DNA from: Verrucomicrobiota bacterium
GTDB taxonomy: Bacteria; Verrucomicrobiota; Verrucomicrobiia; Limisphaerales; CANJXF01
Assembly: GCA_043775015.1 (NCBI GenBank)
Contig: JAYVSV010000098.1
Coordinates: forward strand, 7,501-71,500
Direction of reading: 5' to 3'
DNA: 64,000 bases
Shown here: positions 36,882-60,993 of the stretch, piece after piece
Numbering within the stretch: position 1 is the stretch's first letter
Layout of the letters: each line of letters begins with the position of its first letter
Made by a program: the position numbers and the translations under genes
Notes under the pieces: generated by a model
What the model saw: only the letters and a program-made list of their open reading frames with translations
What the model was told of the DNA's origin: nothing
The model's database searches: none

Positions 36882-37016
36882 AGACCAGTCGTCGGCGATG
36901 GCAAAGAGAATGTTGGGGCACGGCGGCGCGGCGGCAACCGTGGCGGCGCCCGCCCGCCAAACCGGCAGCAGCGCCAGCACGGCGGTCAACAGCCGACCAT
37001 TGAAAGTTTTTTCCAC
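36882..37016 (-). pseudogene. Sulfatase 5' fragment (signal peptide plus PNILFAIADDWS only)
   Basis: GTG-EKTFNGRLLTAVLALLPVWRAGAATVAAAPPCPNILFAIADDWS, after which the sequence is no longer sulfatase-like. Confidence 0.4.
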
Positions 37017-37121
37017 ATAATCGTCCGTCAACTTCGCCAGTTGGCGCGGTCACGGCAATACACCCGTTCGGGGAGGTTGCCGCCCGCCACGACAATAGGC
37101 AAACTGCCTGCAAATCAGTCT

Positions 37122-38552: not shown

Positions 38553-38720
38553 GGACTCCACAACGAGGATGAACTTTGACCACCCATCGCTGAGGTTCGC
38601 TTGCTCGCCTTCCCCGGCCCGCTTTCCACTACGCGGGCGGGACGGTTTCCGCGCACCTATTCAGGGGTATTGCGAACCCCATCGCTGGCGTCCAAACTAA
38701 AAGCCGTGTTCGAAAAAACC

Positions 38721-42311: not shown

Positions 42312-42314
42312 TTT

Positions 42315-45300
42315 ATGAAGAATATTTCGACCATGCGAACGATAATCTGGTTGCCCAAGTCCCTCTGGCGCGCGCTCGCGGTTCTGTTGGCGACCGCGGC
42401 GCTGACCACCGCCTTGGCGGATCCGCTTGATGAAACGGCGCGCAACACCTTTCATCTTTCACCCATTGGCGTGTGGGATCAGCGCCCAGGCGGCACGAAC
42501 TCTGTGGTGGGCTATCGCTCGCGGATGTTGTCCCTGACGGGCGGAGTGATGCCCAAGAATGTGAAGGCGGGCGTCTCCTCCGGTCTGGAATTTCTCCAGA
42601 GCACACACGGTGGTTACTACGATTATCTTTTCAGCCCCGGGAAGGTTCTTGATTTCACAACCTACACGGTGGCGGAAATTGATTACGTGACGGGCGTGAT
42701 TATTTCCAACGACATCCCGTTTGGCGTCCATGTCAACGGCATGCCGTGGGCTGACAGCGCCATCCAGAGCGAAGACATCCTCCATAACTACCTGGAAAAA
42801 TTTGGCGGCGGCAGCTACCTGCAGGTGGATCGCCTGGGGCGCATCCGCACCGGCACCTCAACCGATGTGACCACGAACGAGGTTTTCTCCGCTTCGGACG
42901 CGCTCGAAATGCAAGTCACGCTCTCGCGCAACGCCACGCTGGTACAAGACTATGCCGGTCGCAATTGCCGCATCGCCATGCGGGTGCTGGGGTCACAACG
43001 GGAGCAGCATCCCGACTTAATCACGTTCGCCAGCATGTCCTCGGAGGTCGCCCAGAATATTCATGCGAACACTGAGTATTGCGATTACAGCTCGTGGTCG
43101 AAACAGGAGTTTCGTGATTGGTTGAGCGGAACAAATCTTTACGCCGGGCAAGCGCAGTATGCGAGTCTGACGAACTTTAACGCCGCGTTCAGCGGGGCGT
43201 CCGGATTTCCGTGGGCGTCCTGGGATGTCGTTCAGCCTCCGACCAACGTAAATTGGAGCACATTCACCGCCACCGGCCGCTGGTGGCGTAAGTGGCATGA
43301 CTTCCGCACCAATCAGGTCGGGCAGATGGTTCAGGCGCAAGTCGGGTGGTGTCGCGACGCGGGTTGGAATCCCGACTCGCTCTACGGCCATCAAATCCCC
43401 CTCGACCCCGCCAGCACTTCCGATGATGACCGAAAATACGCGTCACCCTGGACGACCACCTTCGTGAATGGCGCCGGCAATGGCATCACCACCTATTACG
43501 GCAATGCCTCCGCCACGAATATCTTCTCCGCGATTCGCGCCAACGACAAAAACTGGGGCATCTTTGAGTATAACCCGATCACCAACAGCGTCGCCGCCAA
43601 TCTCGCCGCGCTCGACACGGTCTGGAATTCCGGCGGACGCGTCATCGCCCCTTACACTTGGTGGGGCTTTGACACATACCAGATTTATGATCGGCCTTTG
43701 CAAACCGCGTTGTCGCAATTTATCTTCAATCATAGCAACCAGTCCTTCACCAACCTGGCGCCTTACGAAGTCAGCCCTGCCGCCCGCGACGTGATTTGGG
43801 CGATGAGTGAGAGTGACGACATTGAGAGTTCATCCGGGGTGAGCGCGCTGGTTTTCACCAATGGAATTTTGTCCGGTCAGATTACCAACGCCACGCCGAT
43901 GCTCTCCTTGGAATTCAACGAATCGCCGACGCGCTTTATTCTTTCCGACCAATACTACGCGGCCTCGTTTCGTTTCTACCTCAGCAATGCCCTGGTCGGC
44001 TTCGGCCAGATCGCCTGGGTGGATAACACCGGCGCGACCAATGCCGTCACGTTCCCCGCGCGCCCCGGCTGGAATGTTTACCGCGTCAATCTCGCCGAAA
44101 ATGCTGCGTGGCGAGAAAAGAAGATCCAAGCCCTCGAATTTCGACCGGCCTCGGCCAGTGGGAATTTCAGTCTCGATTGGTTCCGGCTCGAAGCCGCCCC
44201 CTGCTGGCACTTCGATGACGCGAACGAAATCTATGGCGTCAACGATGTGACCAACGCAACCATTGCGGGCGGCATCTTCAGCGGCACGAGCGGGCCGGAT
44301 GCGTATTTCTATTTCTCCACCGACAAGCGCAATGCAAGTGAGGATGCCGATCGCGCTTACGTGGATGCCAACACCTACAAGAAAGTTCGAGTGCGCCTGA
44401 CTTCTTCTACTGCGAGCACCGGGCAGATGTTCTGGTGGAAACGGGGCACTTCATTTTTCACCACCACTTTCGCTGTTGCTGCCGGCACCCAAACCTACGA
44501 GTTGGATCTGTCCGCCGATCCGAATTGGACGGGCGACATCACGCGCCTCCGACTTGATCCCGTCAACCAAGCGGGCATCGCGTTTGAGGTGGATTACCTT
44601 TCCGTCGCGCCAGTCATGCTCCCGCCGCGCATCGCCAACTCCGATCTCATCGTGAATTCTCCCGCGCCCGTTTTCCTGTGGGATGGCGCGTTCGAGCCGA
44701 ATCATTCCGGCGTCAGCTACACGCTGGAACTCTCCACGAATTTCTTTTTCACCAACGCGGTATTCGCGACGAACGGCTTGACCGGCAGCCGGCTGGTTTA
44801 CAACGGCACGCCGGTGCTGGACGGCCTCTACTGGTGGCGCATCCGCGCCCGCGACGCGGCGGGCAACCTCTCGCCGTGGGCCGTGCCGATGCCGATGTTT
44901 GTCCGCACCTGGAACTTCAACCAACTTGCGGACATCGCCTCCTCAAATCAATTTGGGGCCGCTGCCATCAACAGCGGAGTCTGGCAGGCGACGAGCAGCG
45001 GCAACGACCCGTATATGAATTTCAATACGGGCAGTCCCTCCAATCGCGGTGTCAACGCGGACCTTTACAATCGGTTTGTTTGCCGGGTGAAAGTGGCAAC
45101 GGGGGTAAATAATTTTGCGCAATTCTTTTGGTTTCCCAAATCCGGCGGGTTCGCTTTTACCAGTCCCACACTGCCCGCCGATAACGCGTGGCATGATCTG
45201 GATATTGATCTGAGCCAGAACGCGCAGTGGAAAGGGTATCAAGACTCGGTGCGGCTTGATCCGACTTCGTTGCCCGCCACACAAGTCTCGCTCGACTACG

Positions 45301-46934
45301 CCTATCTTCTGCCCGCGCTCGAACCCGCCGCGCAACCTGGCAACTGGCAGTTTAACACGAACGGCAACTTCGAAGGCTGGCAAGTCGTCAATGGTTTCAC
45401 AAGTCCGGCGGTCACGAACGGGGCGCTCACTGGCAATCTGTTCGCGGCGAATGCGGCGCTGCAAATCGCGCCGTTGAATCTAAACGGCAGTTCCAACTCG
45501 TTCTTCCAGTTCCGGGTTCTGAACCAGACCGCCGCGACCAGCGCATGGCTTCACTGGACCACCACTGCCAACGCTTATTTCGACAGCAACAAAGCCGTGC
45601 TCATTACGCTCACGCCAAACGATACCGGCAGACGCAGTTACGCAGCAGACCTGATGAGCAATACGAATTGGGTTGGCAACACCATCACCGCGCTCCGCCT
45701 GCAACCCGCCGCCGACGCGACCAGCGGTCGCATCGAGATTGATTGGATTCAAGTCACCGCCCAACCCACCAACCAAGCCCCGAGTTTCACGAAAGGCGCG
45801 AATGTGGTTTTGCTCGAGGACACCAGTCCGCAGACTTTTTCCAACTGGGCCACGAACATCAGCGCCGGGCCAGCCAATGATGCGTGGCAAACCGTCGCCT
45901 TCATCGTGACGAACAACAACAATTCCATCTTTTCGACCCAACCCGCTATCAACCCGACGGGCAACCTTTCTCTAGCTCTGGCGGCAAACGCCAACGGAGC
46001 GGCGACCGTCACCGTGCGCTTGCAGGACAACGGCGGCATAGCCAACGGCGGACAGGATTCTTCCGCGCCGCAGACCTTCACCGTGACCGTGACTCTGGTG
46101 AATGACGCGCCTTCGTTCACGCCCGGCTCGAATGTCGTGGTGAACGAAGATTCCGGCCCGCAGAACTTCGCGAATTGGGCGACGAACATCACTGCCGGTC
46201 CGCTGGATGAAACCGCGCAAACCGTCAGCTTCACAGTCACGAACAACAACGATGCATTGTTCTCTGCGCCACCCGTCATCAATTCCTCCGGCACACTGAC
46301 CTTTACCATCGCCACGAACGCGTTCGGCGTGGCGACCATTTCTGCCACGCTAACCGACAGCGGCGGCACCGCCAATGGCGGTCAGAATAGCTCCGCGCAG
46401 CAATTCTTCACCATCACCGTCAACGCGGTGAACGACTTGCCCGTCGCCGCCGCCGATTCGATCTTCGCGCATTGGAACACCGCGACGACGATTGCCGTCT
46501 CAAATCTTCTGGCTAATGATTCCGATCCCGACGGCGGCGTTTTGAGCGTGACCGGAGTGACGACTCCCAGCGCGAGCGGCGGCGGAGTTTCATTGGCGGG
46601 AAGTTTGGTAAATTATCAACCGCCGACGAACTACTTCGGCGCGGACGGATTCAACTATTTCTTGAGCGACGGTCAGGGAGGACAAAGCACCGGCGCGGTT
46701 TCGCTGACCATTGTTCGCCCGACGATCACCGCGTGGCAAATGTCGAGCAACGGCGCGTTCCGCCTAGAGTTCAGCGGCATTCCGAACACGGCCTACACGT
46801 TGCAAACTTCCTCCAACCTGCTGAATTGGCCCAGCCTCTCGACCAATGCGACCGGCAGCAATGGCCTGCTGAGCGTGGACGACGTGACAGCCACCAATGC
46901 GCCCCAGCGCTACTACCGCTTCGTCTGGCCCTAA
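42315..46934 (+). CDS. Secreted 1539-aa multi-module protein: GH42-like region, four copies of an unnamed module, an FN3-like domain, three cadherin-like repeats and a C-terminal YYRF domain
   Basis: Signal peptide. CDYSSWSKQEFRDWLSGTNLYAGQAQYASLTNFNAAF is GH42-like. The repeats are described in the findings. The start lies 3 nt after the previous stop. Confidence 0.65.
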   Translation: MKNISTMRTIIWLPKSLWRALAVLLATAALTTALADPLDETARNTFHLSPIGVWDQRPGGTNSVVGYRSRMLSLTGGVMPKNVKAGVSSGLEFLQSTHGGYYDYLFSPGKVLDFTTYTVAEIDYVTGVIISNDIPFGVHVNGMPWADSAIQSEDILHNYLEKFGGGSYLQVDRLGRIRTGTSTDVTTNEVFSASDALEMQVTLSRNATLVQDYAGRNCRIAMRVLGSQREQHPDLITFASMSSEVAQNIHANTEYCDYSSWSKQEFRDWLSGTNLYAGQAQYASLTNFNAAFSGASGFPWASWDVVQPPTNVNWSTFTATGRWWRKWHDFRTNQVGQMVQAQVGWCRDAGWNPDSLYGHQIPLDPASTSDDDRKYASPWTTTFVNGAGNGITTYYGNASATNIFSAIRANDKNWGIFEYNPITNSVAANLAALDTVWNSGGRVIAPYTWWGFDTYQIYDRPLQTALSQFIFNHSNQSFTNLAPYEVSPAARDVIWAMSESDDIESSSGVSALVFTNGILSGQITNATPMLSLEFNESPTRFILSDQYYAASFRFYLSNALVGFGQIAWVDNTGATNAVTFPARPGWNVYRVNLAENAAWREKKIQALEFRPASASGNFSLDWFRLEAAPCWHFDDANEIYGVNDVTNATIAGGIFSGTSGPDAYFYFSTDKRNASEDADRAYVDANTYKKVRVRLTSSTASTGQMFWWKRGTSFFTTTFAVAAGTQTYELDLSADPNWTGDITRLRLDPVNQAGIAFEVDYLSVAPVMLPPRIANSDLIVNSPAPVFLWDGAFEPNHSGVSYTLELSTNFFFTNAVFATNGLTGSRLVYNGTPVLDGLYWWRIRARDAAGNLSPWAVPMPMFVRTWNFNQLADIASSNQFGAAAINSGVWQATSSGNDPYMNFNTGSPSNRGVNADLYNRFVCRVKVATGVNNFAQFFWFPKSGGFAFTSPTLPADNAWHDLDIDLSQNAQWKGYQDSVRLDPTSLPATQVSLDYAYLLPALEPAAQPGNWQFNTNGNFEGWQVVNGFTSPAVTNGALTGNLFAANAALQIAPLNLNGSSNSFFQFRVLNQTAATSAWLHWTTTANAYFDSNKAVLITLTPNDTGRRSYAADLMSNTNWVGNTITALRLQPAADATSGRIEIDWIQVTAQPTNQAPSFTKGANVVLLEDTSPQTFSNWATNISAGPANDAWQTVAFIVTNNNNSIFSTQPAINPTGNLSLALAANANGAATVTVRLQDNGGIANGGQDSSAPQTFTVTVTLVNDAPSFTPGSNVVVNEDSGPQNFANWATNITAGPLDETAQTVSFTVTNNNDALFSAPPVINSSGTLTFTIATNAFGVATISATLTDSGGTANGGQNSSAQQFFTITVNAVNDLPVAAADSIFAHWNTATTIAVSNLLANDSDPDGGVLSVTGVTTPSASGGGVSLAGSLVNYQPPTNYFGADGFNYFLSDGQGGQSTGAVSLTIVRPTITAWQMSSNGAFRLEFSGIPNTAYTLQTSSNLLNWPSLSTNATGSNGLLSVDDVTATNAPQRYYRFVWP
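45771..46430 (+). repeat. Two tandem 330-nt (110-aa) cadherin/VCBS-like coding repeats, followed by a third diverged unit to about 46715
   Basis: NQAPSFTKGANVVLLEDTSPQTFSNWATNISAGP...FTVTVTLV versus NDAPSFTPGSNVVVNEDSGPQNFANWATNITAGP...FTITVNAV. Confidence 0.85.
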
Positions 46935-47006: not shown

Positions 47007-49235
47007 TTACGGATTCTGCTTTCGCGCCGCCAACTCGCGTTCTAGATCGCGTTGCAATCCATGATTTATTGCGCGAATTTTGTCCAGCCGCTGGCGCAAG
47101 GCTGCCGATTGTTCCGCCGGCCAGCGATTCCAATAATCCAGCGGTGAGGAACTGGAAATCGCAGCGGCTTCCCGCACGGCTTTTTCAATGTCATCCAACA
47201 CGGCGAGTTGTTTTTTTATCAAGGCGGCGGCCTGACCGACATCCCAGAAACGAAAGCCCGGTCGAATCACATAAACCGGCGTGGTGACGGCTTCGGAGCG
47301 GTTGCGGCCAACAACGTGCGCGGCGAGCCACGAACCATGCCCGGCGGCAACGGTGGTGGTGAGTTCGAGTTCAGTTTGATTCTCATTCGTCGCCACAACT
47401 TCCCGGATGACTTTCCCGAATTGCACGAGTTGCAATTTCAGCGGGGCAGACGCGCCACGCAAACCCCACGCCCGGATTTTCACTTCGAGCGAAAGATTGT
47501 TCGTCACCGTGATGGTGTCGCCGGGCCGCGCGTTGTTGACTTTGAAATCCAGCATCGGCCCGGTTGTGACAAAGGTGCGGCCGTTTTTGAGCGCATTGAA
47601 CCACTTGTCCGGTGTGAACGGCGCGTTCGTGCCGCAGTCCGCGTAGAGCCGCACCGCGCCGACTGTGCCGCCGTAGGGCGTATCCGTCCCAGCACTGGCG
47701 GTCATTTTGTAACCGAGGTTCAGGAAGTCGTAAAAATAATCCGTGTTGAGACTCGCCTGCATGATGCTGTTGAAATCCACGATGTTCAGCGGCGTGAACA
47801 GTGCCATCTCGCGCTCGACCGACAACGCCTTTGCGCCGACGTGCGTGTGCCCGTAGAGACCGCCTTGCTGATGAATCTGCTCAGCGATCCAATCATTGAG
47901 ATAGTAGTGGTCAAGGTCGCGGACTTTTGATTTCAGATTCAAACCGATGGCGTGGCCGAGCATGGAGCGCGGGTCTTCCTGTCCGGGCACGAGCCAGTGT
48001 CGTCCACTTTCGTCCCGCACGCGGAACTCCGGGCCGAAGCCGCGTTGCGCATACCACGTCCGCATTTCGTTGCCCATTTCCAGCACGTTCCCAATGTGGA
48101 TATCGCCCGCCACCGTGAAGGCCAGAAGTTTCTCCGCGTCCTCACTGCTCATCAAGCGCGAGTGGATGTGATCATCGCCCGAATACCAGCCGCGTTCGGG
48201 CATATTCGTCCAGCGTTTGAGTTGAAAAGTTTTGCGCGTCCACTGGCCCGGTTCGACACGGAAGGTTTCGTGTAACGGCTCGTATTCGATACCGTGGAGA
48301 ATGTGAATTTCCCAATCGCCAGCGGGCAAAGCCATCTCGAACGGCTTCGGCACGATCCAATAACGTCCCTGAAACGGGCCAGGAATATAAACCATGTAGC
48401 CGCGGCCTGGTCCGTAGATGGGGAGGCTCGTCACGTCGTTCATCATCGGCGATAAATCCACCGCGCCCGCCGGTTCAAAGAGGCGTTGCCCCGCGCCGGA
48501 CGTCAGCCGCAGCAGCACGGAAACGGGTTTCCCGTTTTCATCGAGCACCTGCACTCCGACTTGGCCGCCCGGCTTGGAGTTGAACGAGAGCGCCCACCGG
48601 AACGCTGGCTCACTCGCGCCTTCGTTCTGAAACGCGACATGGAAGATGGTCTTGTCCGAAGGCACTTGCTCCAGCTTCATCACCACGAACGTGGTGGCGT
48701 TCGATGCGATGGTGATGCGGTAAGGTTTCGGATCGCGCTCGGTCGTCATGTTCATTTCGTGGACGACAAAGTTCGTTGGGCCGTTACCAGTGACGACTTT
48801 TAAGAGTAACAAATTATATTGCTGATCGAGTTCCAGCGCGTCGTCGGGCTTGTGCGAGGGTGGGCCTTGGCGGAAATCGAGCGGGATGAGGTCGGGAATT
48901 TGCGGCAGCAATTCCAGCAAACTCTGCTCGGCGCGCCAATGATAATAATCCGCATCGGCGGGCGCAGAGCTGCGAACTTCGCCAGCGCGGATGCGGTCGG
49001 CATTGGCAAATTGTTCCAACACGCGATCCAGCAAAACGAGCTGCGGCTGCGTCAAGCGATTGCGGAGATGGGTCAGCAATTCGCGGGAAAAATTCACGGA
49101 GCCGCGCAACGGCGGCTGAATCTGCGCGAGTTGCTCGGGCGTGGGTTTGGGCAAATCAATGCCATGACTCCACGCCGCAGGGGTCAGCCAGAGCAGCATG
49201 ACGGCGGCGACGATAAAAAGTTTTTCGATTTTCAT
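47007..49235 (-). CDS. Secreted HxH metallohydrolase-like protein, paralogue 1 (PHP/amidohydrolase-type; family uncertain)
   Basis: Signal peptide; RGWYSGDDHIH, LNLGYKMTASAGTD and GRTFVTTGP. Confidence 0.65.
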   Translation of the reverse strand: MKIEKLFIVAAVMLLWLTPAAWSHGIDLPKPTPEQLAQIQPPLRGSVNFSRELLTHLRNRLTQPQLVLLDRVLEQFANADRIRAGEVRSSAPADADYYHWRAEQSLLELLPQIPDLIPLDFRQGPPSHKPDDALELDQQYNLLLLKVVTGNGPTNFVVHEMNMTTERDPKPYRITIASNATTFVVMKLEQVPSDKTIFHVAFQNEGASEPAFRWALSFNSKPGGQVGVQVLDENGKPVSVLLRLTSGAGQRLFEPAGAVDLSPMMNDVTSLPIYGPGRGYMVYIPGPFQGRYWIVPKPFEMALPAGDWEIHILHGIEYEPLHETFRVEPGQWTRKTFQLKRWTNMPERGWYSGDDHIHSRLMSSEDAEKLLAFTVAGDIHIGNVLEMGNEMRTWYAQRGFGPEFRVRDESGRHWLVPGQEDPRSMLGHAIGLNLKSKVRDLDHYYLNDWIAEQIHQQGGLYGHTHVGAKALSVEREMALFTPLNIVDFNSIMQASLNTDYFYDFLNLGYKMTASAGTDTPYGGTVGAVRLYADCGTNAPFTPDKWFNALKNGRTFVTTGPMLDFKVNNARPGDTITVTNNLSLEVKIRAWGLRGASAPLKLQLVQFGKVIREVVATNENQTELELTTTVAAGHGSWLAAHVVGRNRSEAVTTPVYVIRPGFRFWDVGQAAALIKKQLAVLDDIEKAVREAAAISSSSPLDYWNRWPAEQSAALRQRLDKIRAINHGLQRDLERELAARKQNP

Positions 49236-49298
49236 TTTGAGATTTTAACAAAAGTATTGTTAGCGGTTGCTTTTGGCAGCATCCGAATTGCGCCCCCG

Positions 49299-49376
49299 GG
49301 AGCGCGGACTTCAGCCCGCTGCAACGCCCACATTGCAGGCCGACGTGAAGCGGTCCCGCGTGCGGGACCGCGCTCC
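49299..49376. repeat. GC-rich compound hairpin sharing GGAGCGCGGAC with the 4.4-kb element
   Basis: ggagcgcgg (49299-49307) pairs with ccgcgctcc (49368-49376). Inner hairpins are ctgcaa..ttgcag and gtcccgc-gt-gcgggac. Confidence 0.7.
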
Positions 49377-49414
49377 GAAAGCGCTCACACCGTTCTGTTC
49401 CGCCGTGCCGCCGT

Positions 49415-52180
49415 CTAATCCGAATTCGCCTCGTCAAAAATTTGGCGATACGTCTGTCGGGCGTGCTCGTAGGCAGCCTTGGCCTGAACTTTCTCCACAC
49501 CAGGATAACAATGTTCTTTCTGGGACCAGCATTGATCCACCCCGCGCAGACACCATTCGGCACTGCGCTTTGATGCGCGGATGGGCTGTCCGTCCACGAT
49601 CACAAAAATCGGATTAGTGTGCGCGGAAGGAAACGTTCGCAACGCGACCCAACTGCTCTGCTCAATCGGCACTTCAAAGGAAAACTCCTGTTCGCCGCCC
49701 TGGCTGGAAATCATTTTGCGGGCGACGGGATAGCCGTTGACCACGACTTCGAGCGCAACCGCGTTGGTGTCCAATCGTCTTTCAGCGGCAATGACTTTGA
49801 GCCGGATTTTACCAGCCCTCGCGAGCCGCAGTTCGCTCCCGTGTTCGCCGACGGCGACGGAATTGTTCGACGCGTTCACCTCTGCTGCAGAGAATTCCAT
49901 GAGGTGACTCGTGCCGTCGCTGACGTAGCTGCGTCCGTCGCGGAGTTTGTCGCACCAGTCATCGAAAGTAAGTTTGCCATCCAGCTTCACATAGACGCGG
50001 CCAAAGCCCACTCGCGCGCCGTTCATGCACGGGAAATCCGTCTCGCCGCTGATTCGGGTGCGGAAGCCGCAGTTCAAAACGTGATACCAGATGTTAAATT
50101 CCAGTCGCCGGTCACTGTTCATCGTGGCAATGAAATCAATGGCGGGAACCAGCTTGCCGTCTGCGCCGGGAACGGTGTGCGTCACGTCCACGATAAATTC
50201 ATTTGCGCCGACGCCGTCGTAGCGCGGGATGTCGTAACTCGGCAAAGCGTTCGGCCCGTCCGGACCCGCTACGCGGCCAACTGAACCGTCCAAGCCCAGC
50301 GCGGAATGAGCCGTGCCGCAGATGGCACCCTGCGCCTTGGCCCAGCGCAGCGTGTTCAGACCGAGTTTGGGCCAATGATCTTTCGAATTGCCGCCGGGCG
50401 GAATTTGATCTTTCAACCGCAGCAAACAGAGATGACCGGAGACATGAGAGCCGAAGCCGCTGACCTCAATGTCTTGCCGGATGAGATAGGGATAATTGGA
50501 AACGCGATCCACATAGCCACAGAAAAATTGCTTTTGAAAATCAAACCCCGGCCCCCAGTTCAGACTGCAACCAATTTTCAAATCTTCGCCCATCGTGTGC
50601 CGCTGCATGGATTCGGGCGAAACGCCTTCCGTGGGTTTAAGATAATGCAGACAGCCTGCGCCATGAATGTGGCTGTCGCCGGAAAACCAGCCGCGCGCCA
50701 TCGGGTTCACCCAGCGATTTACGTTGTAACGAATCGTGTGCTGGGTTTCGCTGACGATGACGGTCTGCGTTTCCGGCACGGACTCCGGCCCGCGTGAACA
50801 GGTGACGGTGTAAGCTCCCGCTGGCAATGACTCGGATTCGCCATCGGCGCGATAAATCTGCGGCTGAAAATAAAAGTCCGGTTCCAGCCGCTTGCTCTGC
50901 ATGGGATAGATGCGGCCCTGTGAATCGCGAATCACAAAAGCGGCCATCGTCGGCAACCCGGCCAGATCTCGCACTTCAAATTTTACGGGGATGGCCGGTT
51001 CAATTTTGAATTTCATTTCCGCGCTCGCCCAGCCCGATCCGGTAGCCTCGGCGTTGGCGATTTCAATGGAATCAATCTCCGAAATACCAGTGGTCATGCC
51101 GGGATCCAGCCGCAGGCCGACAAGATGATCTTCCGCGGTAAAATTAAATTTGAATTCTGACCATTGCCCCGTGCTGCGCGTGGCGAGAAACGAAACCACA
51201 TGACCGGAATCCGCCTCGCGCCGTTTTTCCGTGGTCCAAAATAATTGCCAGGTGGCTTCCGTATCCGTCTTGGCCCGGATGCGGACAACTTTTGCGCCGG
51301 GCGACATGTTCAACTCGGCTTGCAGGAAAGGATCGTTACCGGTGCTTTCAATTTGCAGCGCGCCGTTGGTGAGGGAAAGTTGACACTGATTTTTCGCCGC
51401 CCAGCCTTCGGTGGCTGAATCAAAGTTCCAAATTGTTTTGTAGGCTTCATCCACGCGCTCTGAATTCAGGCCGGACTCGCTGGACTTGAATGCCAGCGCG
51501 GCGGTGCGGGTGCCGGGAAACTTCGCCCAAATCTGGATGATGCGGTATTCCAATTCGAGACCGCTCAAGGTCGCGTTCAACGGGCGATGATCGAACATCT
51601 CCACGTCAATCCAGCGCTTGGCCACTTCGGCGGCGGGGCTTTCTGGCAATGGACGCGCACCGGGGCTGTCCACGAACAGCGCGTCGTGCCGCCCGCCGGG
51701 ATTGTGAACCTTGACCAAAAACGCCCGCCAGCCTTGCGCCAACAATTTTGGCTTTGCCGCCGCCGGCGTGAACGTGACCGCGCCGTTCGTTTGCAAAATC
51801 ACTTCGCCCACGCATACCGGATCCAACGCGTGCTGCACGGCAAAACCAATTTCACGGGCAGAATTTTTCCGGCCCGCTTCGACGAGTTGCTGGTGAACTT
51901 TTTCTGGCAACGGCTGGCCGATGAATTGCAGCGCGTCTTGCAGCCTTCCGACTTGAGCCAGCAGCGGCTGGCTTTCAACGCCGTCAATCAGCGGGAAAGG
52001 TTCGGCGGCGAACAGTTGCGTCCCGCTGGCGAGCAGTGCAGCCAAGACCGTGAATGTGTTTAGAACGGCTGCTGAAAATAAATTCCGGACAGGAACGCCG
52101 CCTTCAGGCGGAAGATACTGCCCTACACCCAATCTGCCGACTGAAGTCGGCGTTCCTCGGAATCGTAGTACCTTACTCAT
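49415..52180 (-). CDS. Secreted HxH metallohydrolase-like protein, paralogue 2, with an inserted copy of the island-specific module
   Basis: RGWFSGDSHIH, LNCGFRTRISGETD and GRSYVSDGT. The start is uncertain (ATG at 52180 or 52192). The N-region is encoded by a palindromic element. Confidence 0.6.
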   Translation of the reverse strand: MSKVLRFRGTPTSVGRLGVGQYLPPEGGVPVRNLFSAAVLNTFTVLAALLASGTQLFAAEPFPLIDGVESQPLLAQVGRLQDALQFIGQPLPEKVHQQLVEAGRKNSAREIGFAVQHALDPVCVGEVILQTNGAVTFTPAAAKPKLLAQGWRAFLVKVHNPGGRHDALFVDSPGARPLPESPAAEVAKRWIDVEMFDHRPLNATLSGLELEYRIIQIWAKFPGTRTAALAFKSSESGLNSERVDEAYKTIWNFDSATEGWAAKNQCQLSLTNGALQIESTGNDPFLQAELNMSPGAKVVRIRAKTDTEATWQLFWTTEKRREADSGHVVSFLATRSTGQWSEFKFNFTAEDHLVGLRLDPGMTTGISEIDSIEIANAEATGSGWASAEMKFKIEPAIPVKFEVRDLAGLPTMAAFVIRDSQGRIYPMQSKRLEPDFYFQPQIYRADGESESLPAGAYTVTCSRGPESVPETQTVIVSETQHTIRYNVNRWVNPMARGWFSGDSHIHGAGCLHYLKPTEGVSPESMQRHTMGEDLKIGCSLNWGPGFDFQKQFFCGYVDRVSNYPYLIRQDIEVSGFGSHVSGHLCLLRLKDQIPPGGNSKDHWPKLGLNTLRWAKAQGAICGTAHSALGLDGSVGRVAGPDGPNALPSYDIPRYDGVGANEFIVDVTHTVPGADGKLVPAIDFIATMNSDRRLEFNIWYHVLNCGFRTRISGETDFPCMNGARVGFGRVYVKLDGKLTFDDWCDKLRDGRSYVSDGTSHLMEFSAAEVNASNNSVAVGEHGSELRLARAGKIRLKVIAAERRLDTNAVALEVVVNGYPVARKMISSQGGEQEFSFEVPIEQSSWVALRTFPSAHTNPIFVIVDGQPIRASKRSAEWCLRGVDQCWSQKEHCYPGVEKVQAKAAYEHARQTYRQIFDEANSD
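52091..52157. repeat. Compound palindromic element inside the 5' end of paralogue 2
   Basis: aggaacgccg (52091-52100) pairs with cggcgttcct (52148-52157). Inner hairpins are ccgcc-ttca-ggcgg and gccgac-tgaa-gtcggc. Confidence 0.7.
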
Positions 52181-52351
52181 GTGGAAATTCATTTTGGGGA
52201 TCAGTATAACCGTTTCATTGTTGAATCGTTGATTGGTTTGCCGATGACGGCTGGCATTGAAACAAGATCGCCACCTCGCTGCGAAATGCGAATTGCAGAA
52301 AAACCGCTCGGCTGACAGCAACTAAAAACTGGATTCTGGAATTGGGTCTTG

Positions 52352-54010
52352 TCATCGCGCGTCTCGCTCCAGCTTTTGATACGCTTCCAGTGCTTGCTGA
52401 TACTCCGCCACAGCTTCTGGCGACAACACACTCGTGTTGGTGGCGATTTCCTGTTTCATCCGCTCAACAAGCCAGGCCACTTCCTCGCGGCGTGGTCGCA
52501 ACGGCGCGGTTGAATCGTCAAACCATGACGGTGCGGTGTGGGCAAAGCGAATTCGTCCGCCATTACGTTCTTCCCAGCACCGGAGTGCGAGCCAGCTTGT
52601 GCCGGTAATTTTGACCGAGGCCTTGAACCGCGCTTCATACGCGCCGTCACTGTTGCGTTTCGTTTTCAATGGAATCGTCTGCACGGTCGCGCCGTTCGCA
52701 AGCACCTCGAGGGCGTGAACCGGTTTCTCACTCAACACAGTACCGCTGATTTTGACTCGCTGCGCTTTTCCTGAAGTCATCGCAAATTTCCCGCCTGGCA
52801 CTTCGCCATTTATTTCAGCGAGCAACATCGGTCCGGTCGTAACAAAGCTGCGACCTGCGCCCAATCCTTTGATCCAGTCGTCGTAGGTGAAACCGCGCGG
52901 GCAATGGACATACACGCGGCCAAATCCGAGCGGCACGGGATGCACGCCACTCGCTGTGCCCGCGGTGGGGCGCATCCGAAAGCCGCAGTCGAGCAGCGCA
53001 TAGTAGGTGTTCAAGGTGTAATTGATCCAATCCCGCTCCCCACCACTACGCCCCGCGTCCGGCAGACGCATGAACGCAGGCGCGGGCACGTTAAAGTTGG
53101 TAAAGCCATACTCGGTGCGCCAGAGATGGTTGTTGGCGAGTTCGTAGAGGTCAATCTGCATTACCGGCGGCAGCATGAGTGACCAATTCCAATTACATTT
53201 GTCCATGTCCAGCAACGCACCCTGCCGGTGCGCCTCTTCCGCCACCGGACGCAACGGCGGCGCGCCGAGCGTGAAGGGTTTGCGATGATTCAGGATGAAC
53301 ACCGCGCCAAGGTTGTGATCTTTGCCGCCGACGCGATAGATTTCGTATTCCGTGTTGAGGGGCCAGATGACGTGGGTGGCGTCGGCCTTGATCAGCGAAG
53401 GGGAAATTTCCGGTTCACCGGATTTGTCGCCCGGCGTGGTTGAATCTTGAGCGCCAAAGAATTTATTGCTGCGTGTGGGCCGGGTGTTGTCCTGGATGGC
53501 CCAATACGACTGCGGCAACGCGACGTTCAAGTCTTCGGCCAGCACGAGCACCGGTAGATCGGCGAGCGACCGATGCACATGGCCGTCGCCGGAGAACCAA
53601 CCGCGTGCCGCCATGTTGATCCAGCGATGCAATTCGAGTTTCACGGCGAGCGGCTTGTCGGTGACAACAACCTCTTTCGTTAACGGATGATATTCCTTGC
53701 CGCGTTCGGCTATGAAGGTGTAGCGACCGGGCGGCAGTTCGACACGAAACGGATGCCCCGAGAGCGTGGTGTGAACTTCCATCGCGCGCGGATTGACCCA
53801 ATTGGTCTTGGCGTAACGAACGGCGGTGCCGCCGATGGATTCCGCGAAAAACCATTCGCCCGCGGCGCTCTGAATGTAGAGGCGCGAGGCAACGATTTTG
53901 GAGGCGTCTGTGATTTCACCCGTCACCGTTGCGCCAAGGGCTGTGCCAAACGGCGCGAGCGACAGAAAAACGGCGAGCGACAGGCGCTGTTTAATAATCT
54001 TCAACCTCAT
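52352..54010 (-). CDS. Secreted HxH metallohydrolase-like protein, paralogue 3
   Basis: Signal peptide MRLKIIKQRLSLAVFLSLAPFGTALG; RGWFSGDGHVH, LDCGFRMRPTAGTA and GRSFVTTGP. Trimmed to the ATG at 54010. Confidence 0.65.
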   Translation of the reverse strand: MRLKIIKQRLSLAVFLSLAPFGTALGATVTGEITDASKIVASRLYIQSAAGEWFFAESIGGTAVRYAKTNWVNPRAMEVHTTLSGHPFRVELPPGRYTFIAERGKEYHPLTKEVVVTDKPLAVKLELHRWINMAARGWFSGDGHVHRSLADLPVLVLAEDLNVALPQSYWAIQDNTRPTRSNKFFGAQDSTTPGDKSGEPEISPSLIKADATHVIWPLNTEYEIYRVGGKDHNLGAVFILNHRKPFTLGAPPLRPVAEEAHRQGALLDMDKCNWNWSLMLPPVMQIDLYELANNHLWRTEYGFTNFNVPAPAFMRLPDAGRSGGERDWINYTLNTYYALLDCGFRMRPTAGTASGVHPVPLGFGRVYVHCPRGFTYDDWIKGLGAGRSFVTTGPMLLAEINGEVPGGKFAMTSGKAQRVKISGTVLSEKPVHALEVLANGATVQTIPLKTKRNSDGAYEARFKASVKITGTSWLALRCWEERNGGRIRFAHTAPSWFDDSTAPLRPRREEVAWLVERMKQEIATNTSVLSPEAVAEYQQALEAYQKLERDAR

Positions 54011-54032: not shown

Positions 54033-54060
54033 AAAAAAAGACCGGGCCGAAGCCCGGTCT
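54033..54060 (-). terminator. Rho-independent terminator after the LamG gene
   Basis: Minus strand reads agaccgggcttcggcccggtct followed by ttttttt. Confidence 0.8.
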
Positions 54061-54081
54061 TCTGATTGATCGAACCCGAGC

Positions 54082-56477: not shown

Positions 56478-57305
56478 TTAATACCACTTAGATACAAAGT
56501 TGTTGGTTTGAGTAAGCGAACGGCTTTCAACATGGCCGTCCATAAAGACAACATTTACTCGTCCGCCGGGGGAGGTCTTGCCGTGCTTAAAACCAGCGCG
56601 ATAAATCGGCTTCCCGCCGAAGTAAATATACGCATCAAAGAATCTGCCTTCCTTCCACGGCATCGCCACAAAGCCGACATCATAAGAAACATCGGTGATC
56701 AAAAACGTATCGGATGGCTTAATGACGGAGCTGATCTTGGCGGCCTTGGAATAAACATAAGCGGCTTGGTCAGTGACATCTTTAGTCGGATCGACGGCGA
56801 TACCCGTGGCGCTGTTCATGCCGTAGCTCACCTTCCAGAGAGAAGGCCCGAACGGGCCAGGCGGAAAAGCTGGATTGTTCAACGGCTCTTTCAGGCGATT
56901 GGGGCAGGTAAAGACACTTTTGGCAAAATCGCTGGTCTCAGTGGAGTTGCCCGCACTGAACTCACCCTTCTTGATGTACGGCGTGAGCAGATACATCCAA
57001 TTGTTCTTGTTTGGGTCGAGCACGGCGGCAGCGTGCGCAAAGGGAAGTCCGTCACTGTTGTCATCTGCGTACAAAATAGTAGCGAGACCACACTGGCGCA
57101 GATTGTTTTTGCAGGCGATGCCACTGGCCTTGTCTTTTGCCTTGCTTAAAGCGGGCAGCAGCAGACCGGCAAGAATGGCAATGATGGCGATGACCACCAA
57201 CAGTTCGATCAACGTAAATGCCCGCCGACTGCGAAAGCTGGCTCTGGAGATTTTGAAAATCAACATGCTCCCAAAAAAATCATAACGTTGGCGGTGGTGG
57301 TTCAT
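56478..57305 (-). CDS. Prepilin-leader (type II secretion pseudopilin-like, DUF1559-type) protein
   Basis: [31 protein letters not shown], with a C-terminal [10 protein letters not shown]. The start may be the Met at 57266. Confidence 0.85.
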
Positions 57306-57372
57306 TAAACTTAATTGAATGTGAGAAAATACTCCCCCTCATGTTTCCCAACAATACCCCCAAAAGGGTGTA

Positions 57373-57993
57373 TCATTCGCGGAACTTCATCACCGCCTCG
57401 GTGCGTGAGCGCACATGGAGCTTGGCGTAGATGTTTTTCAAATAGGCATGAATCGTTTCCACCGACAGCCCCAGCGCCTCGGCCACCTCTTTGTTGCTGT
57501 AACCCTGCGCCACATAGCTGAGAACATCGGTTTCGCGCTTGGAAAGATTTTCCGCCGTCTTGCCTGACGCATCCTTTTGAAAAGATTGCACGACTTTGCG
57601 CGCGATGTAATTCGACATTGGTGCGCCTCCGTGTTGCACATCTTGAATGGCCTGGAGAATTTCATCCGCCGGCGAACGCTTGAGCAGGTAGCCGTTGGCG
57701 CCCATTTGCAGTGCGCGAAAAATCCGGTCGCTGTCGTCATACACCGTGAGCATGATGATGTGGGTTTTCGGCAGAAGCTGCTTCAACTGCCGCGTGCATT
57801 CCACGCCGGACATCTTCGGCAGGTTGATGTCCATTAGCACCACGTCCGGCTTTAATTTTGGCATCCCTTCAATCGCCGCTTCGCCGTTGGAAAAAACACC
57901 CAGACATTTGAACCCCGTCTTTTCTCGCAACAACGCCTGCAAGTTTTCCCGCGTCTTGAAATCGTCTTCCACAATGGCAATCGTGATGGGCAT
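57373..57993 (-). CDS. NarL/LuxR-family response regulator
   Basis: Receiver domain (EDD..., DVVLMDINLP, ..MLTVY..) plus a LuxR HTH (LSKRETDVLSYVAQGYSNKEVAEALGLSVETIHAYLKNIY). Confidence 0.93.
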   Translation of the reverse strand: MPITIAIVEDDFKTRENLQALLREKTGFKCLGVFSNGEAAIEGMPKLKPDVVLMDINLPKMSGVECTRQLKQLLPKTHIIMLTVYDDSDRIFRALQMGANGYLLKRSPADEILQAIQDVQHGGAPMSNYIARKVVQSFQKDASGKTAENLSKRETDVLSYVAQGYSNKEVAEALGLSVETIHAYLKNIYAKLHVRSRTEAVMKFRE

Positions 57994-57999
57994 AAAAAA

Positions 58000-60993
58000 T
58001 CAGGCGTTGAGGCTTTTCAACGGCACGGTGAAAAATAATTCCGTGCCGGTGGCGGGCGCGCTCTCGACCCGCAAATTTCCGCCGAGCGCGGCCAGTCGTT
58101 CGCGGATGTTGGCGAGGCCGTCCTGGCCGGGTTGCACCCCGGTCAGCGGCAAGCCCCGGCCATTGTCGGAGATGGTCACCAGCAAATCAGTTTCTGAAAG
58201 TTGCAGCCGAATCCACAGTTCCGTCGCGCCCGAATGGCGGGCCACGTTGTTGAGCGCTTCCTTCAACGCCAGAAACAAATGGTGCCGCGCCTCGGTCGTC
58301 ATCGGGTGCGCGGGCAAATCCGCCGGAATGTCCAAGCGACAACGAATGGCCGTGGGCTGAAAAAATTCGCCGGCGAAATGCGCGATGTAGTTGGCGAAAT
58401 GTTCCAGCGAATCGTTCTGCGGGTTCAACGCCCAAACGATGGCGTCCATCGCAGTCAAACTTTGCCGCGCGCTGACCGCAATTTTTTCCAAGTCCACCGT
58501 CACGGCTTCCGGCTGTGAAATATGTTTCCGTCCCAAATCCGCCAGCCAGCCAATGCTCGTGAGATTCGCGCCCAACTCATCGTGAATATCTCGGGCAATC
58601 CGGCCGCGCTCCTGTTCCAACGCATGTTGCTGTTCCAAAATTTCAATCCGCCGCTGCAACCGCCGCAACGCAAACCAGCGCACAATCAACGCCATCAGGA
58701 CGATGCTCGCCGCGACGGCCAGCGGCGGAAACCACCACGTCTGCCAAAAAAATGGCGCGACCACCAACGCGATGCCTGCCCCTTGCTCATTCCAAGTGCC
58801 GTCCGCATTGCTCGCGATGACCCGAAAGCGATGCGCCCCCGGCGACACGTTCGTATAAGTGGCGACGGCTTCCGCACTCGGCGGACTCCAGTCCGCGTTT
58901 TCGCCACCCAGCTTGTGACGGTAACGCACGCGTTCTGGCGCATCGAACTCCGGCGCGGAAAATTGAAATTCCAAAATCCGCACGCCCGCCGCCAGTTCCA
59001 AATCATTCTGCAATGGCTGGGATTCGCCGTTGCGCCGCACCCCCTCGATAAAAATGCTCGGCGGCTCATGATTACGCTTCATCGCGGTCGGCCAAAAACT
59101 GACCGCGCCTTTCACGCTCGCAAACCAGAATTGCCCGGCGCGCGTGGCGAGGGCGGCGGGTTGAAATTCTCCGTTGAATTGAAAACCGTTCAGCCCGTCA
59201 CTGTGGCCGTAGCTGAACGTTGGCAACGAAGTCCGCTTACCTTCGACGTAAGCATTCAGTTCGTGCAACTCCACGCGGAACAATCCACGGCTCGTGCCAC
59301 ACCACATCCAGCCGGAACTGTCGAGCAGCAAACTTTGAACGGCGTCATCCGGCAAGCCTGCCGCCGCCGTCACGTTTTTAAAGCGTCCATTTTTGAATCG
59401 CACCAAACCCTCGCCGGCCGTGCCGAGCCAGATGGCGCCATCATCGGCGGCCAGCATCGCGCGGATGCTTTCGCCCGCGGAATGATCGTGAGGAAAATTT
59501 TGAAATCTTCCGTTGACCAGCTTGGCCAGCGCGCCGTCTGCCGTGCCGACCCAGATGTTGCCGACGGAATCTTCCGCCACATCACGCACGGCCTTGTCCG
59601 GCAAGCCGTCGTTGACTGTGTAATGTTTCAACCGTTCGCCTTCCAGGCAATACAAGCCGTCCAAATACGATCCCGCCCAGACCCGGCCAGAACTATCCAC
59701 GCGCAGGCAATTCACAAAATGAATCGGCATCCCCAAATTCTGGGTAAAATTGCGGAAATGCCCGTCGCGCCAATAATAAAGTCCTTCGTTCTGCGTCCCA
59801 ATCCACACGCCGCCCTCGGCATCCGCCGCGAGGCACAGCGGATTGATTTCCGGCCAGCCGTCCGCCGCGCCAAAAACTTTTACCACGCCGTTGCTCCAAT
59901 AGCTCAAGCCCTGGTCTTGCGTGGAAATCCAAATCCGGTTTTGCGTGTCCTCCGCAAAAGAAAAAACGCGGTCGTTGGGCAGGCCACGATGACTGTTCAA
60001 CACTTTGAACTGACGCGCCCGGATCAAGTCCAGCCCGCCGCCCTGCGTGCCGACCCACAAATTGCCCGTGCGATCTTCCGTCAGGCACAAAATATTATTG
60101 TGCGAGGTCGGCACGGATTGAAAACGCCCGCCGAACCAGCGGAACAACCCTTTCGCGCTCGTGCCGACCCAGACTGCGCCCGCGCGGTCTTCCAGCAGGT
60201 CGCGGACATTCGCCTCGCCCACCAGCCACGGCAGCGTGGTGATTTCAGTCAGTGCCCCACCCGACTCCACGCGATAAAGACTTCCGGACGTGGACATCCA
60301 AACGCCGCCCGCCCGCGCCGGTGTGATATAAAGTGACGCCTGCAAATTCGTCGCCAAAGCGATAAATTTATTATCCCGAAAAAATCCCAACGTGCCGCCG
60401 CTCGCCAGCCAGACTGTGTTCTCGCTGTCCGTGACCAGCGTGGAAGTTCGCAATGGCCCCGGCACGGGAATGCCCAGAGATTTCATCGTGCCGGCGAAAA
60501 GTTGATCCACCTCGCCTTCCAGCGAAACCGTCCAAATGCGACCGATAGAATCCGAACAGAAACTGTAAGCGCGATGCCGATCCGGCTGGCCATCCACCGG
60601 CAATGCCTCGAAAATTCCGGCTTGCCGCGTCAGCACGCCGCCGGACTCCAGCGCCACTAACACCTTGCCGTCCGGTGCGTGGCTCATGCGCCACACGCTC
60701 ACTTTGGTCGCACCGGTCAGGCCGGGCGTGAAGCCGGAGACAAACTTGCGCCCATCAAAACGTACCAGCCCGTTGCGCGTGCCGACCCAGAGAAAACCAT
60801 CCGCCGTCTGCGCCACGCCATGCACATCGTTGTTCGGTAGGCCTTCCTCGGTTTGCCAGCTTTGATAAAAAAATCCGTTGGAAATTTCCACGGCATTGGT
60901 CTCACCGGTGGCGTGGGCGTATCTGGGAAAAAGCAGTCCCAGCCCGACCAGTAACACCAGCCCGACTGAAAAAATAAATCGGTGCAATAACAT
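58000..60993 (-). CDS. Sensor histidine kinase with periplasmic two-component-regulator beta-propeller and Y_Y_Y domains
   Basis: Repeated ..G.LW.GT..GL..F.. propeller blades, then YRHKLGGENADWS (Y_Y_Y-like), one TM, the HisKA_3 H-box RIARDIHDELGANL, and the HATPase motifs NVARHSGA / DNGRGL. Confidence 0.9.
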   Translation of the reverse strand: MLLHRFIFSVGLVLLVGLGLLFPRYAHATGETNAVEISNGFFYQSWQTEEGLPNNDVHGVAQTADGFLWVGTRNGLVRFDGRKFVSGFTPGLTGATKVSVWRMSHAPDGKVLVALESGGVLTRQAGIFEALPVDGQPDRHRAYSFCSDSIGRIWTVSLEGEVDQLFAGTMKSLGIPVPGPLRTSTLVTDSENTVWLASGGTLGFFRDNKFIALATNLQASLYITPARAGGVWMSTSGSLYRVESGGALTEITTLPWLVGEANVRDLLEDRAGAVWVGTSAKGLFRWFGGRFQSVPTSHNNILCLTEDRTGNLWVGTQGGGLDLIRARQFKVLNSHRGLPNDRVFSFAEDTQNRIWISTQDQGLSYWSNGVVKVFGAADGWPEINPLCLAADAEGGVWIGTQNEGLYYWRDGHFRNFTQNLGMPIHFVNCLRVDSSGRVWAGSYLDGLYCLEGERLKHYTVNDGLPDKAVRDVAEDSVGNIWVGTADGALAKLVNGRFQNFPHDHSAGESIRAMLAADDGAIWLGTAGEGLVRFKNGRFKNVTAAAGLPDDAVQSLLLDSSGWMWCGTSRGLFRVELHELNAYVEGKRTSLPTFSYGHSDGLNGFQFNGEFQPAALATRAGQFWFASVKGAVSFWPTAMKRNHEPPSIFIEGVRRNGESQPLQNDLELAAGVRILEFQFSAPEFDAPERVRYRHKLGGENADWSPPSAEAVATYTNVSPGAHRFRVIASNADGTWNEQGAGIALVVAPFFWQTWWFPPLAVAASIVLMALIVRWFALRRLQRRIEILEQQHALEQERGRIARDIHDELGANLTSIGWLADLGRKHISQPEAVTVDLEKIAVSARQSLTAMDAIVWALNPQNDSLEHFANYIAHFAGEFFQPTAIRCRLDIPADLPAHPMTTEARHHLFLALKEALNNVARHSGATELWIRLQLSETDLLVTISDNGRGLPLTGVQPGQDGLANIRERLAALGGNLRVESAPATGTELFFTVPLKSLNA

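Follow-up and report, generated by a model that had tools for sequence, protein, structure and literature searches.

Three adjacent CehA/McbA-family genes from separate subfamilies in a putative glycan-degradation island of a Verrucomicrobiota bacterium

When three similar genes lie side by side, did they arise from each other by local duplication, and what might they do together? A locus from a Verrucomicrobiota bacterium of the order Limisphaerales (GenBank assembly GCA_043775015.1, contig JAYVSV010000098.1, positions 7,501 to 71,500 of the forward strand) raises this question. The window, by which we mean the whole stretch of 64,000 nucleotides that we analyzed, encodes three metallohydrolase-like proteins, which we will call c1, c2, and c3. 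As the initial annotation described, their open reading frames (ORFs) are adjacent and co-oriented. All three are on the minus strand (Table 1). We propose that the three genes represent ancient subfamilies of the CehA/McbA family and that their products take part in removing decorations from a glycan. Taken as a whole, this is probably the right explanation, although we are far from certain of it. We are confident of its statements about identity and evolution, while its functional statement, that these proteins would free a complex glycan of its non-glycosidic decorations, is tentative.

Three subfamilies of the CehA/McbA family

The initial annotation noted a resemblance of these proteins to the CehA/McbA family (NF038032), and this was correct for all three. 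Against a curated cut-off of 80 bits for the NF038032 model, c1 scores 166.2 bits, c2 scores 235.8 bits, and c3 scores 110.6 bits, and a whole-genome scan agrees. In the public records, NCBI names orthologues of these proteins "CehA/McbA family metallohydrolase." Both c1 and c2 match model positions 1–314 of the 315-position domain. The best stretch for c3 is positions 96–315, owing to an insert of about 45 residues after the HxH strand; the N-terminal D-x-H-x-H segment of c3 does align to the other two subfamilies in profile comparisons.

The three proteins are clearly homologous. BLASTP between pairs of them gives E values of 7e-15 to 7e-19. We also aligned the orthologues of each copy (which we will call subfamilies g1, g2, and g3) and compared the profiles. 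All three comparisons were highly significant (g3/g2, E = 1.6e-40; g1/g3, E = 2.5e-33; g1/g2, E = 3.9e-31; 99.9–100% probability, 406–472 columns), and in every pair the alignment covers an N-terminal beta-sandwich, the catalytic domain, and a C-terminal beta-sandwich. The helical tail is included in the g2/g3 and g1/g2 alignments, while the g1/g3 alignment stops short of it.

The initial annotation proposed that the genes arose by tandem duplication followed by subfunctionalisation, with the third copy having perhaps lost a metal ligand. As a local event, this does not hold up. c1, c2, and c3 are only 24–29% identical to each other, versus 45–90% identity to their own orthologues in other genomes (the closest orthologues of c1 reach 85%). 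With a family alignment and a maximum-likelihood tree of 78 sequences, we asked whether the three copies are most closely related to one another, and they are not: g1, g2, and g3 form three clades with SH-aLRT support of 100 each and stems of 2.7–3.1 substitutions per site, and each copy is nested deep in its own clade among orthologues from other phyla. Orthologues are found in Limisphaerales, other Verrucomicrobiota, Pirellulales, other Planctomycetota, Armatimonadota, Hydrogenedentota, Sumerlaeota, Acidobacteriota, and others. An evenly drawn phylum sample of 150 genomes held no orthologue of c1 at E ≤ 1e-40. Cultured bacteria with c1 orthologues include Stieleria maiorica Mal15, Roseiconus nitratireducens JC645, and Pelagicoccus mobilis KCTC 13126. 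Furthermore, the genome encodes a fourth full member of the family, c4, which falls in the g2 clade and shares 54% identity with c2 over its length. Because c4 lies on another contig (C160), the closest in-genome paralogue of c2 is unlinked.

By this tree, c1, c2, and c3 are representatives of three anciently separated subfamilies and not products of local duplication, and any duplication that gave rise to g1, g2, and g3 is older than the phyla that now carry them. A lineage-specific duplication of one ancestral gene, with c3 degenerating after the loss of a metal ligand, would explain why the genes are adjacent and co-oriented with the same domain order. However, it conflicts with the deep and fully supported clades, with the low mutual identity, with the unlinked paralogue of c2, and with the conservation of the g3 alanine (see below), so we consider it very improbable. 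A variant of this idea, a tandem duplication so old that it lies at the base of the family and precedes the phyla concerned, may have occurred.

As read from the sequence, all three genes are intact and encode signal peptides. On inspection, those of c1 (MKIEKLFIVAAVMLLWLTPAAWS) and c3 (MRLKIIKQRLSLAVFLSLAPFGTALG) are ordinary Sec-type ones, and c3 is identical over 552 amino acids to a sequence in the public records (P0244). For c2, the initial annotation located the ORF correctly from 49415 onward but gave its start as 52180. The conserved start is the ATG at 52192, which aligns with the start of the closest relative, the orthologue at locus L005. (The c2 ORF is open further upstream, to a TTG at 52321, and the c3 ORF is open to a GTG at 54184.) The signal peptide of c2 is interrupted by a palindrome (Table 1) that is absent from the L005 orthologue, which has a short normal signal peptide (MKRLKNFPVLIVLLVSGARLFA).

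The three proteins share an architecture: an N-terminal beta-sandwich, a catalytic domain that is predicted to be barrel-like and opens with D-x-H-x-H, a C-terminal beta-sandwich, and a helical hairpin. All of the motifs quoted in the initial annotation are present (LPxGxW/Y, RGW(Y/F)SGDxH(I/V)H, LN(L/C)G(Y/F)(K/R), GTD/ETD/GTA, GR(T/S)(F/Y)V, and SW(L/V)A), and the helical tail that it described appears as hairpins in the AlphaFold2 models (H871–891 and H894–917 in c2; H508–525 and H531–549 in c3). The model of c3 has a pLDDT of 92.9 and a pTM of 0.91, and the alternating order of its strands and helices fits a PHP-like barrel; the model of c2 has a pLDDT of 88.7 and a pTM of 0.80. Pfam searches with the full proteins found nothing in c1 or c2 and, in c3, just a sub-threshold match to CarboxypepD_reg in the sandwich.

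c2 also contains about 150 residues that are extra relative to c4. This insert is predicted to have the beta-jelly-roll fold of carbohydrate-binding modules (CBMs): no Pfam or NCBIfam model matches it, but Foldseek aligns it to 4mgs, 4qpw, 1gwk, 2w1w, and 5fui, with template-modeling (TM) scores of 0.57–0.70 and a probability of 1.00. The initial annotation proposed that c2 had gained a module that is also found in the large glycosidase-like proteins nearby, and this holds with one correction. A profile built from the module in 53 orthologues matches the neighboring 1539-aa cadherin/Big_9 protein (42315–46934, plus strand) four times, with E = 1.4e-26, and no other protein in the genome; the four copies, at about residues 511–626, 688–764, 862–985, and 1010–1150, are diverged. 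The GH42-like 1236-aa protein gave no match.

The putative active site and the alanine of g3

An alignment of 343 sequences has a near-invariant polar core, which includes the D-x-H-x-H motif (D354, H356, and H358 of c1; D502, H504, and H506 of c2; D142, H144, and H146 of c3) and an aspartate about 20 residues further along (D378 of c1, D533 of c2, and D160 of c3). The HxH pair and the later ligand-like residues that the initial annotation pointed to are conserved in homologues. Each subfamily has a longer list of its own. In g1 (114 sequences), the invariant residues are D354, D355, H356, H358, D378, E420, D421, H428, H465, D487, and D518. In g2, D502, H504, H506, C510, H512, D533, H583, H625, E713, D715, and C718 are invariant or nearly so. 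In g3, H144, H146, D160, E221, E223, H232, H242, K271, and H357 are invariant, and D142 is about 90% conserved.

The initial annotation noticed that c3 has alanine where c1 and c2 have the aspartate of the "GTD" motif, and suggested that c3 might have lost a metal ligand. We compared residues between subfamilies by using the profile alignments. The aspartate is present in 100% of the g1 sequences (D518) and of the g2 sequences (D715). Its counterpart in g3, Ala353, is alanine in 100% of about 117 sequences, which are otherwise 45–85% identical, and it is followed by G355, H357, and P358, which are invariant and specific to g3. This is not what decay of one copy would look like. Instead, the alanine is a fixed character of the subfamily, whose putative site is rebuilt and strongly conserved.

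Two other positions also differ in the profile alignments. H428 of g1 and H583 of g2 are opposite A236 of g3 (94% alanine), and H625 of g2 is opposite the invariant K271. Across g3 as a whole, then, Ala236, Lys271 (by profile alignment; see below), and Ala353 take the places of an invariant histidine, histidine, and aspartate of g1 and g2.

Gene neighborhoods, co-occurrence, and fusions

The three genes are found together in other bacteria. In the closest relatives, the gene order is a Reg_prop/Y_Y_Y kinase, a LuxR-type regulator, a prepilin-type N_methyl protein, a LamG protein, c3, a gene for a 196-aa protein, c2, and c1. At L003, the cassette is followed by GH106 and GH78 rhamnosidases, and L005 repeats the part from c3 to c1. 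More broadly, a cassette is kept at L001–L003 and L005–L008 (Limisphaerales or other Verrucomicrobiota), at L020 (Stieleria), at L026 (Roseiconus), and at L004. Its composition varies: c3 and c1 occur without c2 at L006, at L007, in Stieleria mannarensis (L020), and in a genome of the same genus as ours (G154); c2 and c1 occur without c3 at L001 and L024; Roseiconus nitratireducens (L026) has c2, c3, and, further along, c1; and L004 has the order c3-c1-c5-c2. We also noticed that L004 encodes a fifth, very divergent member of the family (951 aa) with a c4-type N-domain at its C-terminus.

Among 61 genomes from the order, g1 is present in 7, g3 in 20, and g2 in 33. All seven genomes with g1 also have g3 (Fisher p = 1.8e-4, or p = 0.003 with our bacterium's genus collapsed). 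At least one member of the family is present in 48 of the 61 genomes, and some have up to 12.

The subfamilies are also joined in natural fusions. A g3-like domain is fused to g2 in proteins of about 1370–1420 aa (the P0147 type, several clusters), a c5-like domain is fused to g2 in P0149 (1593 aa), and two g3-like domains are in tandem in P0273 and P0277 (906–929 aa). In P0140 (1045 aa), g2 follows a duplicated domain of the 196-aa type. In P0303 and three others, g3 is fused to a CE4 polysaccharide deacetylase. We considered whether the CE4 fusion might be typical of the long forms of g3, but it accounts for just 4 of 31; the rest carry extra CehA-like regions or regions of no known type.

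Another gene that is linked to c1 encodes a secreted CN-hydrolase (nitrilase superfamily). Among 34 loci with a c1 orthologue of at least 43% identity, 14 have a CN-hydrolase within about 2 kb of it, so this is a commoner neighbor than c2 or c3 (8 of 34). In eight of those 14 loci, and at L086, the CN-hydrolase is 63–72% identical to the copy in the window and lies about 0.1–1.7 kb from the c1 orthologue. These c1-adjacent CN-hydrolases are from Akkermansiaceae, Luteolibacter, Verrucomicrobiales, and Stieleria. The CN-hydrolase in the window is a distant member of its superfamily, and its best matches, which are weak, are N-carbamoyl amidases.

The planctomycete versions of the locus (L004, 7110–9965; L086, Stieleria maiorica CP036264.1, 568–9987) lie behind genes for an extracytoplasmic function (ECF) sigma factor and a FecR/Lectin_C anti-sigma-like protein, in place of the window's kinase/regulator pair. 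These loci include genes for a CE4 deacetylase and a CN-hydrolase.

The other genes around the cassette point to polysaccharides. The window encodes a sulfatase, a GH42-like protein, a LamG protein, and a Reg_prop/Y_Y_Y kinase, and the cassette adjoins GH106, GH78, GH27, or FGE-sulfatase genes in relatives. The LamG gene is also directly upstream of the cassette at L001–L003 (where the protein is 52–54% identical), preceded by the same series of N_methyl, regulator, and kinase genes. The GH42-like gene adjoins the cassette at L003, L008, and L084. The island (36–61 kb of the window) has a GC content of 57.2%, versus 53.2% for the genome, which places it in the top 0.4% of 25-kb windows, and of 8 other genomes of the genus, only 2 have the cassette. 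The island is accessory and has probably moved horizontally.

Local REARRANGEMENTS in the window include a 46-aa remnant, the palindrome in the signal peptide of c2, and a hairpin between the LamG gene and c3 (Table 1). The remnant is a copy of the 196-aa gene that lies between c3 and c2 in relatives, with an in-frame internal deletion, and its ATG overlaps the stop codon of c3. The 196-aa gene itself, which is present at L001, L003, and L005, encodes a secreted protein that resembles the N-terminal helical and beta-sandwich domain of c4 and c2 (43–46% identity to that of c4). Given the hairpin, which is strong and terminator-like, c3-c2-c1 may form a transcription unit of their own or one whose transcription is attenuated. 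Between c2 and c1, the 179-nt spacer contains GC-rich palindromes at 49290–49371 (GCGGTCCCGC/GCGGGACCGC and others); in relatives, the c2–c1 spacing is 13 nt (L003) or over 1 kb (L005).

Table 1. Features of the window, with positions counted from its first nucleotide.
Feature	Position	Strand	Basis or comment
Convergent genes: sulfatase, GH42-like 1236-aa protein, 1539-aa cadherin/Big_9 protein	36744..46934	(+)	Pfam
c1, 742-aa secreted CehA/McbA-family metallohydrolase, subfamily g1	47007..49235	(-)	ORF and translation
c1 catalytic domain, residues 349-656	47268..48191	(-)	NF038032 match
c2, 925-aa secreted CehA/McbA-family metallohydrolase, subfamily g2	49415..52192	(-)	With inserted CBM-like module
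c2 catalytic domain, residues 497-860 of 921-aa form	49601..50692	(-)	NF038032 match, model 1-314
c2 jelly-roll module (predicted), residues 234-392 of 921-aa form	51005..51481	(-)	Missing from c4
67-nt palindrome, 26-nt arms, 88% complementary	52091..52157	.	In-frame insertion in n-region of c2 signal peptide
Remnant ORF, 46 aa	52215..52355	(-)	Translation and alignment to L005
c3, 552-aa secreted CehA/McbA-family protein, subfamily g3	52352..54010	(-)	Putative site remodeled
c3 codon Ala353, counterpart of g1 D518 and g2 D715	52952..52954	(-)	Profile alignments
Terminator-like hairpin, 12-bp stem, 7 GC pairs, T-run, between LamG stop and c3 start	54036..54063	(-)	Consensus scan only
LamG/ConA-like secreted protein, 778 aa	54082..56418	(-)	Pfam Laminin_G_3, E 7.7e-10
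Prepilin-type N_methyl/DUF1559 protein, LuxR-type response regulator, Reg_prop/Y_Y_Y histidine kinase	56478..60993	(-)	Pfam
Secreted CN-hydrolase, nitrilase superfamily	61502..62524	(+)	Pfam CN_hydrolase, E 4.6e-27

A possible role, its rivals, and comparison with known systems

We propose that c1, c2, and c3 are complementary metal-dependent hydrolases that act in the periplasm or at the cell surface. Together they would strip ester-, amide-, carbamoyl-, or phosphoester-linked substituents from a complex, and probably rhamnose-rich and sulfated, polysaccharide, and once these were removed, the glycosidases and sulfatases could proceed. The CBM-like module would hold c2 on the polymer. c1 would pair with c3, and often with the secreted CN-hydrolase. 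The metal center of c3 would be remodeled and probably of lower nuclearity.

Several observations weigh against this proposal. We found no characterized member of g1, g2, or g3, and the only characterized members of the family hydrolyze xenobiotic carbamates. A full-text search of a literature library for the family name found no paper, and a broader search of terms returned none on the members in Verrucomicrobiota or Planctomycetota. Searches of the PDB by single sequence or with the g2 profile found no relative. The Pfam model for PHP (PF02811), which had no match in the full proteins at E ≤ 0.1, had no match in the isolated catalytic domains of c1 and c2 even at E ≤ 10, while in the same search, the TrpH-like and PolX proteins of the genome scored 47.5 and 38.1 bits. 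The replacement of H625 by K271 in g3 depends on the alignment: MAFFT pairs H625 with H295 of g3 instead, and because MAFFT and hhalign disagree, the equivalence is uncertain. Both intergenic gaps of the trio contain GC-rich palindromes, and co-transcription is at most putative. Also, g1 and g2 are not associated across the 61 genomes (p = 0.59), and c2 or c3 lies within 10 kb of c1 in just the 8 of 34 loci mentioned above and in none of 45 loci with more distant orthologues of c1.

We also considered that the trio might be an obligate unit. We rejected this because most loci with c1 orthologues lack c2 and c3: 26 of the 34, and all of the 45 distant ones, have neither nearby.

A different role for secreted enzymes of this kind would be as phosphoesterases (phosphatases, phosphodiesterases, or nucleases) that scavenge phosphate or act on phosphorylated glycans; this is the canonical chemistry of enzymes with the PHP fold. 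A site with several histidines and aspartates, led by HxH, is typical of PHP phosphoesterases. Furthermore, over its first ~70 positions, NF038032 also picks up genuine PHP proteins encoded in this genome (the TrpH-like protein and the PHP domain of PolX), and the sole Foldseek match to the catalytic domain of c3 is 3e38, a predicted PHP-like phosphoesterase. This match is weak (E = 4e-3, probability 0.98, 404 columns, target-normalized TM score 0.42). (With full-length models, Foldseek finds mostly immunoglobulin-like matches for c3 and CBM matches for c2.) However, the D-x-H motif near the C-terminus of PHP domains is not kept: g1 has G-x-D-T-P-Y and g2 has E-T-D-F-P-C, with no histidine two positions after the aspartate, and g3, with G-T-A-x-G-V-H-P, has the alanine. 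Also, the genes nearby are not those of a pho regulon or of phosphate transport but encode glycan-degrading and C-N-hydrolyzing enzymes, and the characterized members of the family are carbamate ester hydrolases (PMC13594046, PMC8292978). Overall, we think it unlikely that these proteins are phosphoesterases.

The same evidence bears on how to describe the fold. The initial annotation's "PHP/amidohydrolase-type" is borne out by the weak structural match and the cross-hitting model and goes no further, as the Pfam model does not match the catalytic domains. (When we aligned the g2 profile to one PHP sequence from this genome with hhalign, we obtained a spurious match of 26 columns; a single sequence is too weak a target for this to be read as a negative result.) Because Pfam's PHP model finds no match and the terminal D-x-H is missing, yet NF038032 cross-hits PHP proteins, "PHP-like" is a reasonable but unproven description of the predicted fold. 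On another contig of this genome (C40, 17500–19197, minus strand), we noticed a 566-aa ORF with a weakly PHP-like HxH N-terminus (Pfam PHP, E = 0.074; NF038032, E = 1.5e-6), whose C-terminal "...ANPIYV" recalls the "HTNPIFV" motif of g2; this ORF may represent an intermediate between the PHP and CehA/McbA families.

Another reading concerns c3 alone. c3, and g3 in general, could be a non-catalytic or single-metal partner of c1 and/or c2, which presents the substrate or regulates the other proteins, for instance via the helical hairpins. This would fit with the two or three positions where the invariant histidines and aspartate of g1 and g2 become Ala/Lys/Ala in g3, with the absence of any g1 genome without g3 among the 61, with the repeated adjacency of c3 and c1 in loci that lack c2 (L006, L007, L020, and G154), and with the fusions of g3-like domains to domains of other subfamilies. 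On the other hand, 13 of the 20 genomes with g3 do not have g1. And g3 keeps H144, H146, and D160 (with D142 at about 90%), while E221, E223, H232, H242, K271, and H357 are invariant polar residues of its own, which argue for a working, if different, site. We consider a partner role for c3 quite doubtful.

That the three are hydrolases of carbamate pesticides, as CehA and McbA are, is suggested by their membership in NF038032 and by their signal peptides (PMC8292978), but we found no genes for the catabolism of aromatics or carbamates nearby, the subfamilies are old and occur widely among aquatic and soil bacteria of the Planctomycetes-Verrucomicrobia-Chlamydiae (PVC) group, and cehA and mcbA are recent recruits borne on insertion sequences (IS) or an integron (PMC13594046), so this is hardly credible.

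Returning to glycan decorations, a bolder version of our proposal is that the cassette of g1, g2, and g3 (often with the CN-hydrolase, and sometimes with a CE4 fusion) represents a class of carbohydrate-active enzymes not described before. Its members would be PHP-like hydrolases with multinuclear metal sites that, in PVC bacteria, remove ester, amide, or carbamoyl decorations from complex sulfated or rhamnose-rich glycans, and g3, with a rebuilt center that is possibly bridged by Lys271, would be an obligate partner of g1. This is speculative, and we would be somewhat surprised if all of it were right.

Proteins of the CehA/McbA family are abundant in Verrucomicrobiota and Planctomycetota, and the role known for the family is the breakdown of pesticides. 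The annotation itself is ordinary, as standard pipelines assign the family name to these genes. What is new here is the cassette of three subfamilies, the fixed and apparently rebuilt site of g3, the CBM-like insert, and the link to a CN-hydrolase. Gene order, co-occurrence, and natural fusions tie the subfamilies together; among these, g2 has a member with a CBM-type module; and the setting is an island for polysaccharide degradation. This gives a testable lead, that the family may include enzymes that remove decorations from glycans and are missing from the current catalogs of carbohydrate enzymes. The fixed Ala/Lys/Ala of g3 can also be viewed as a natural experiment in the rebuilding of a metal site.

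How do these proteins compare to known systems? The insert of c2 superposes on CBMs (the CBM4/22-like CBM1 of BiXyn10A, CBM29, CBM35, and CBM6) with TM scores of 0.6–0.7, although the sequence identity is only 12–16%. For the catalytic domains, the nearest solved fold is in the PHP superfamily (PF02811), where the nearest structure, 3e38, is BVU_3505, a two-domain protein. Like PHP proteins, ours have an HxH that is predicted to end strand 1 of a catalytic domain with alternating beta and alpha elements, with a beta-sandwich after it; unlike them, they do not keep the C-terminal D-x-H, and PF02811 does not recognize the catalytic domains of c1 and c2. The closest described relatives by family are CehA and McbA, which are hydrolases of carbamate pesticides with signal peptides; McbA is periplasmic, histidine residues are reported to be important for its catalysis (PMC13594046), and the natural substrate of these enzymes is not known (PMC13594046, PMC8292978). 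Like CehA and McbA, the proteins in the window pass the family model, are large and multi-domain, have signal peptides, and have an N-terminal D-x-H-x-H. But synthetic carbamates are the substrates of CehA and McbA, whose genes are carried on mobile catabolic elements, while the genes in the window come from three old subfamilies and lie in a glycan-degradation island, a CBM-like module is inserted in c2, and g3 has alanine in place of an aspartate that the family otherwise conserves.

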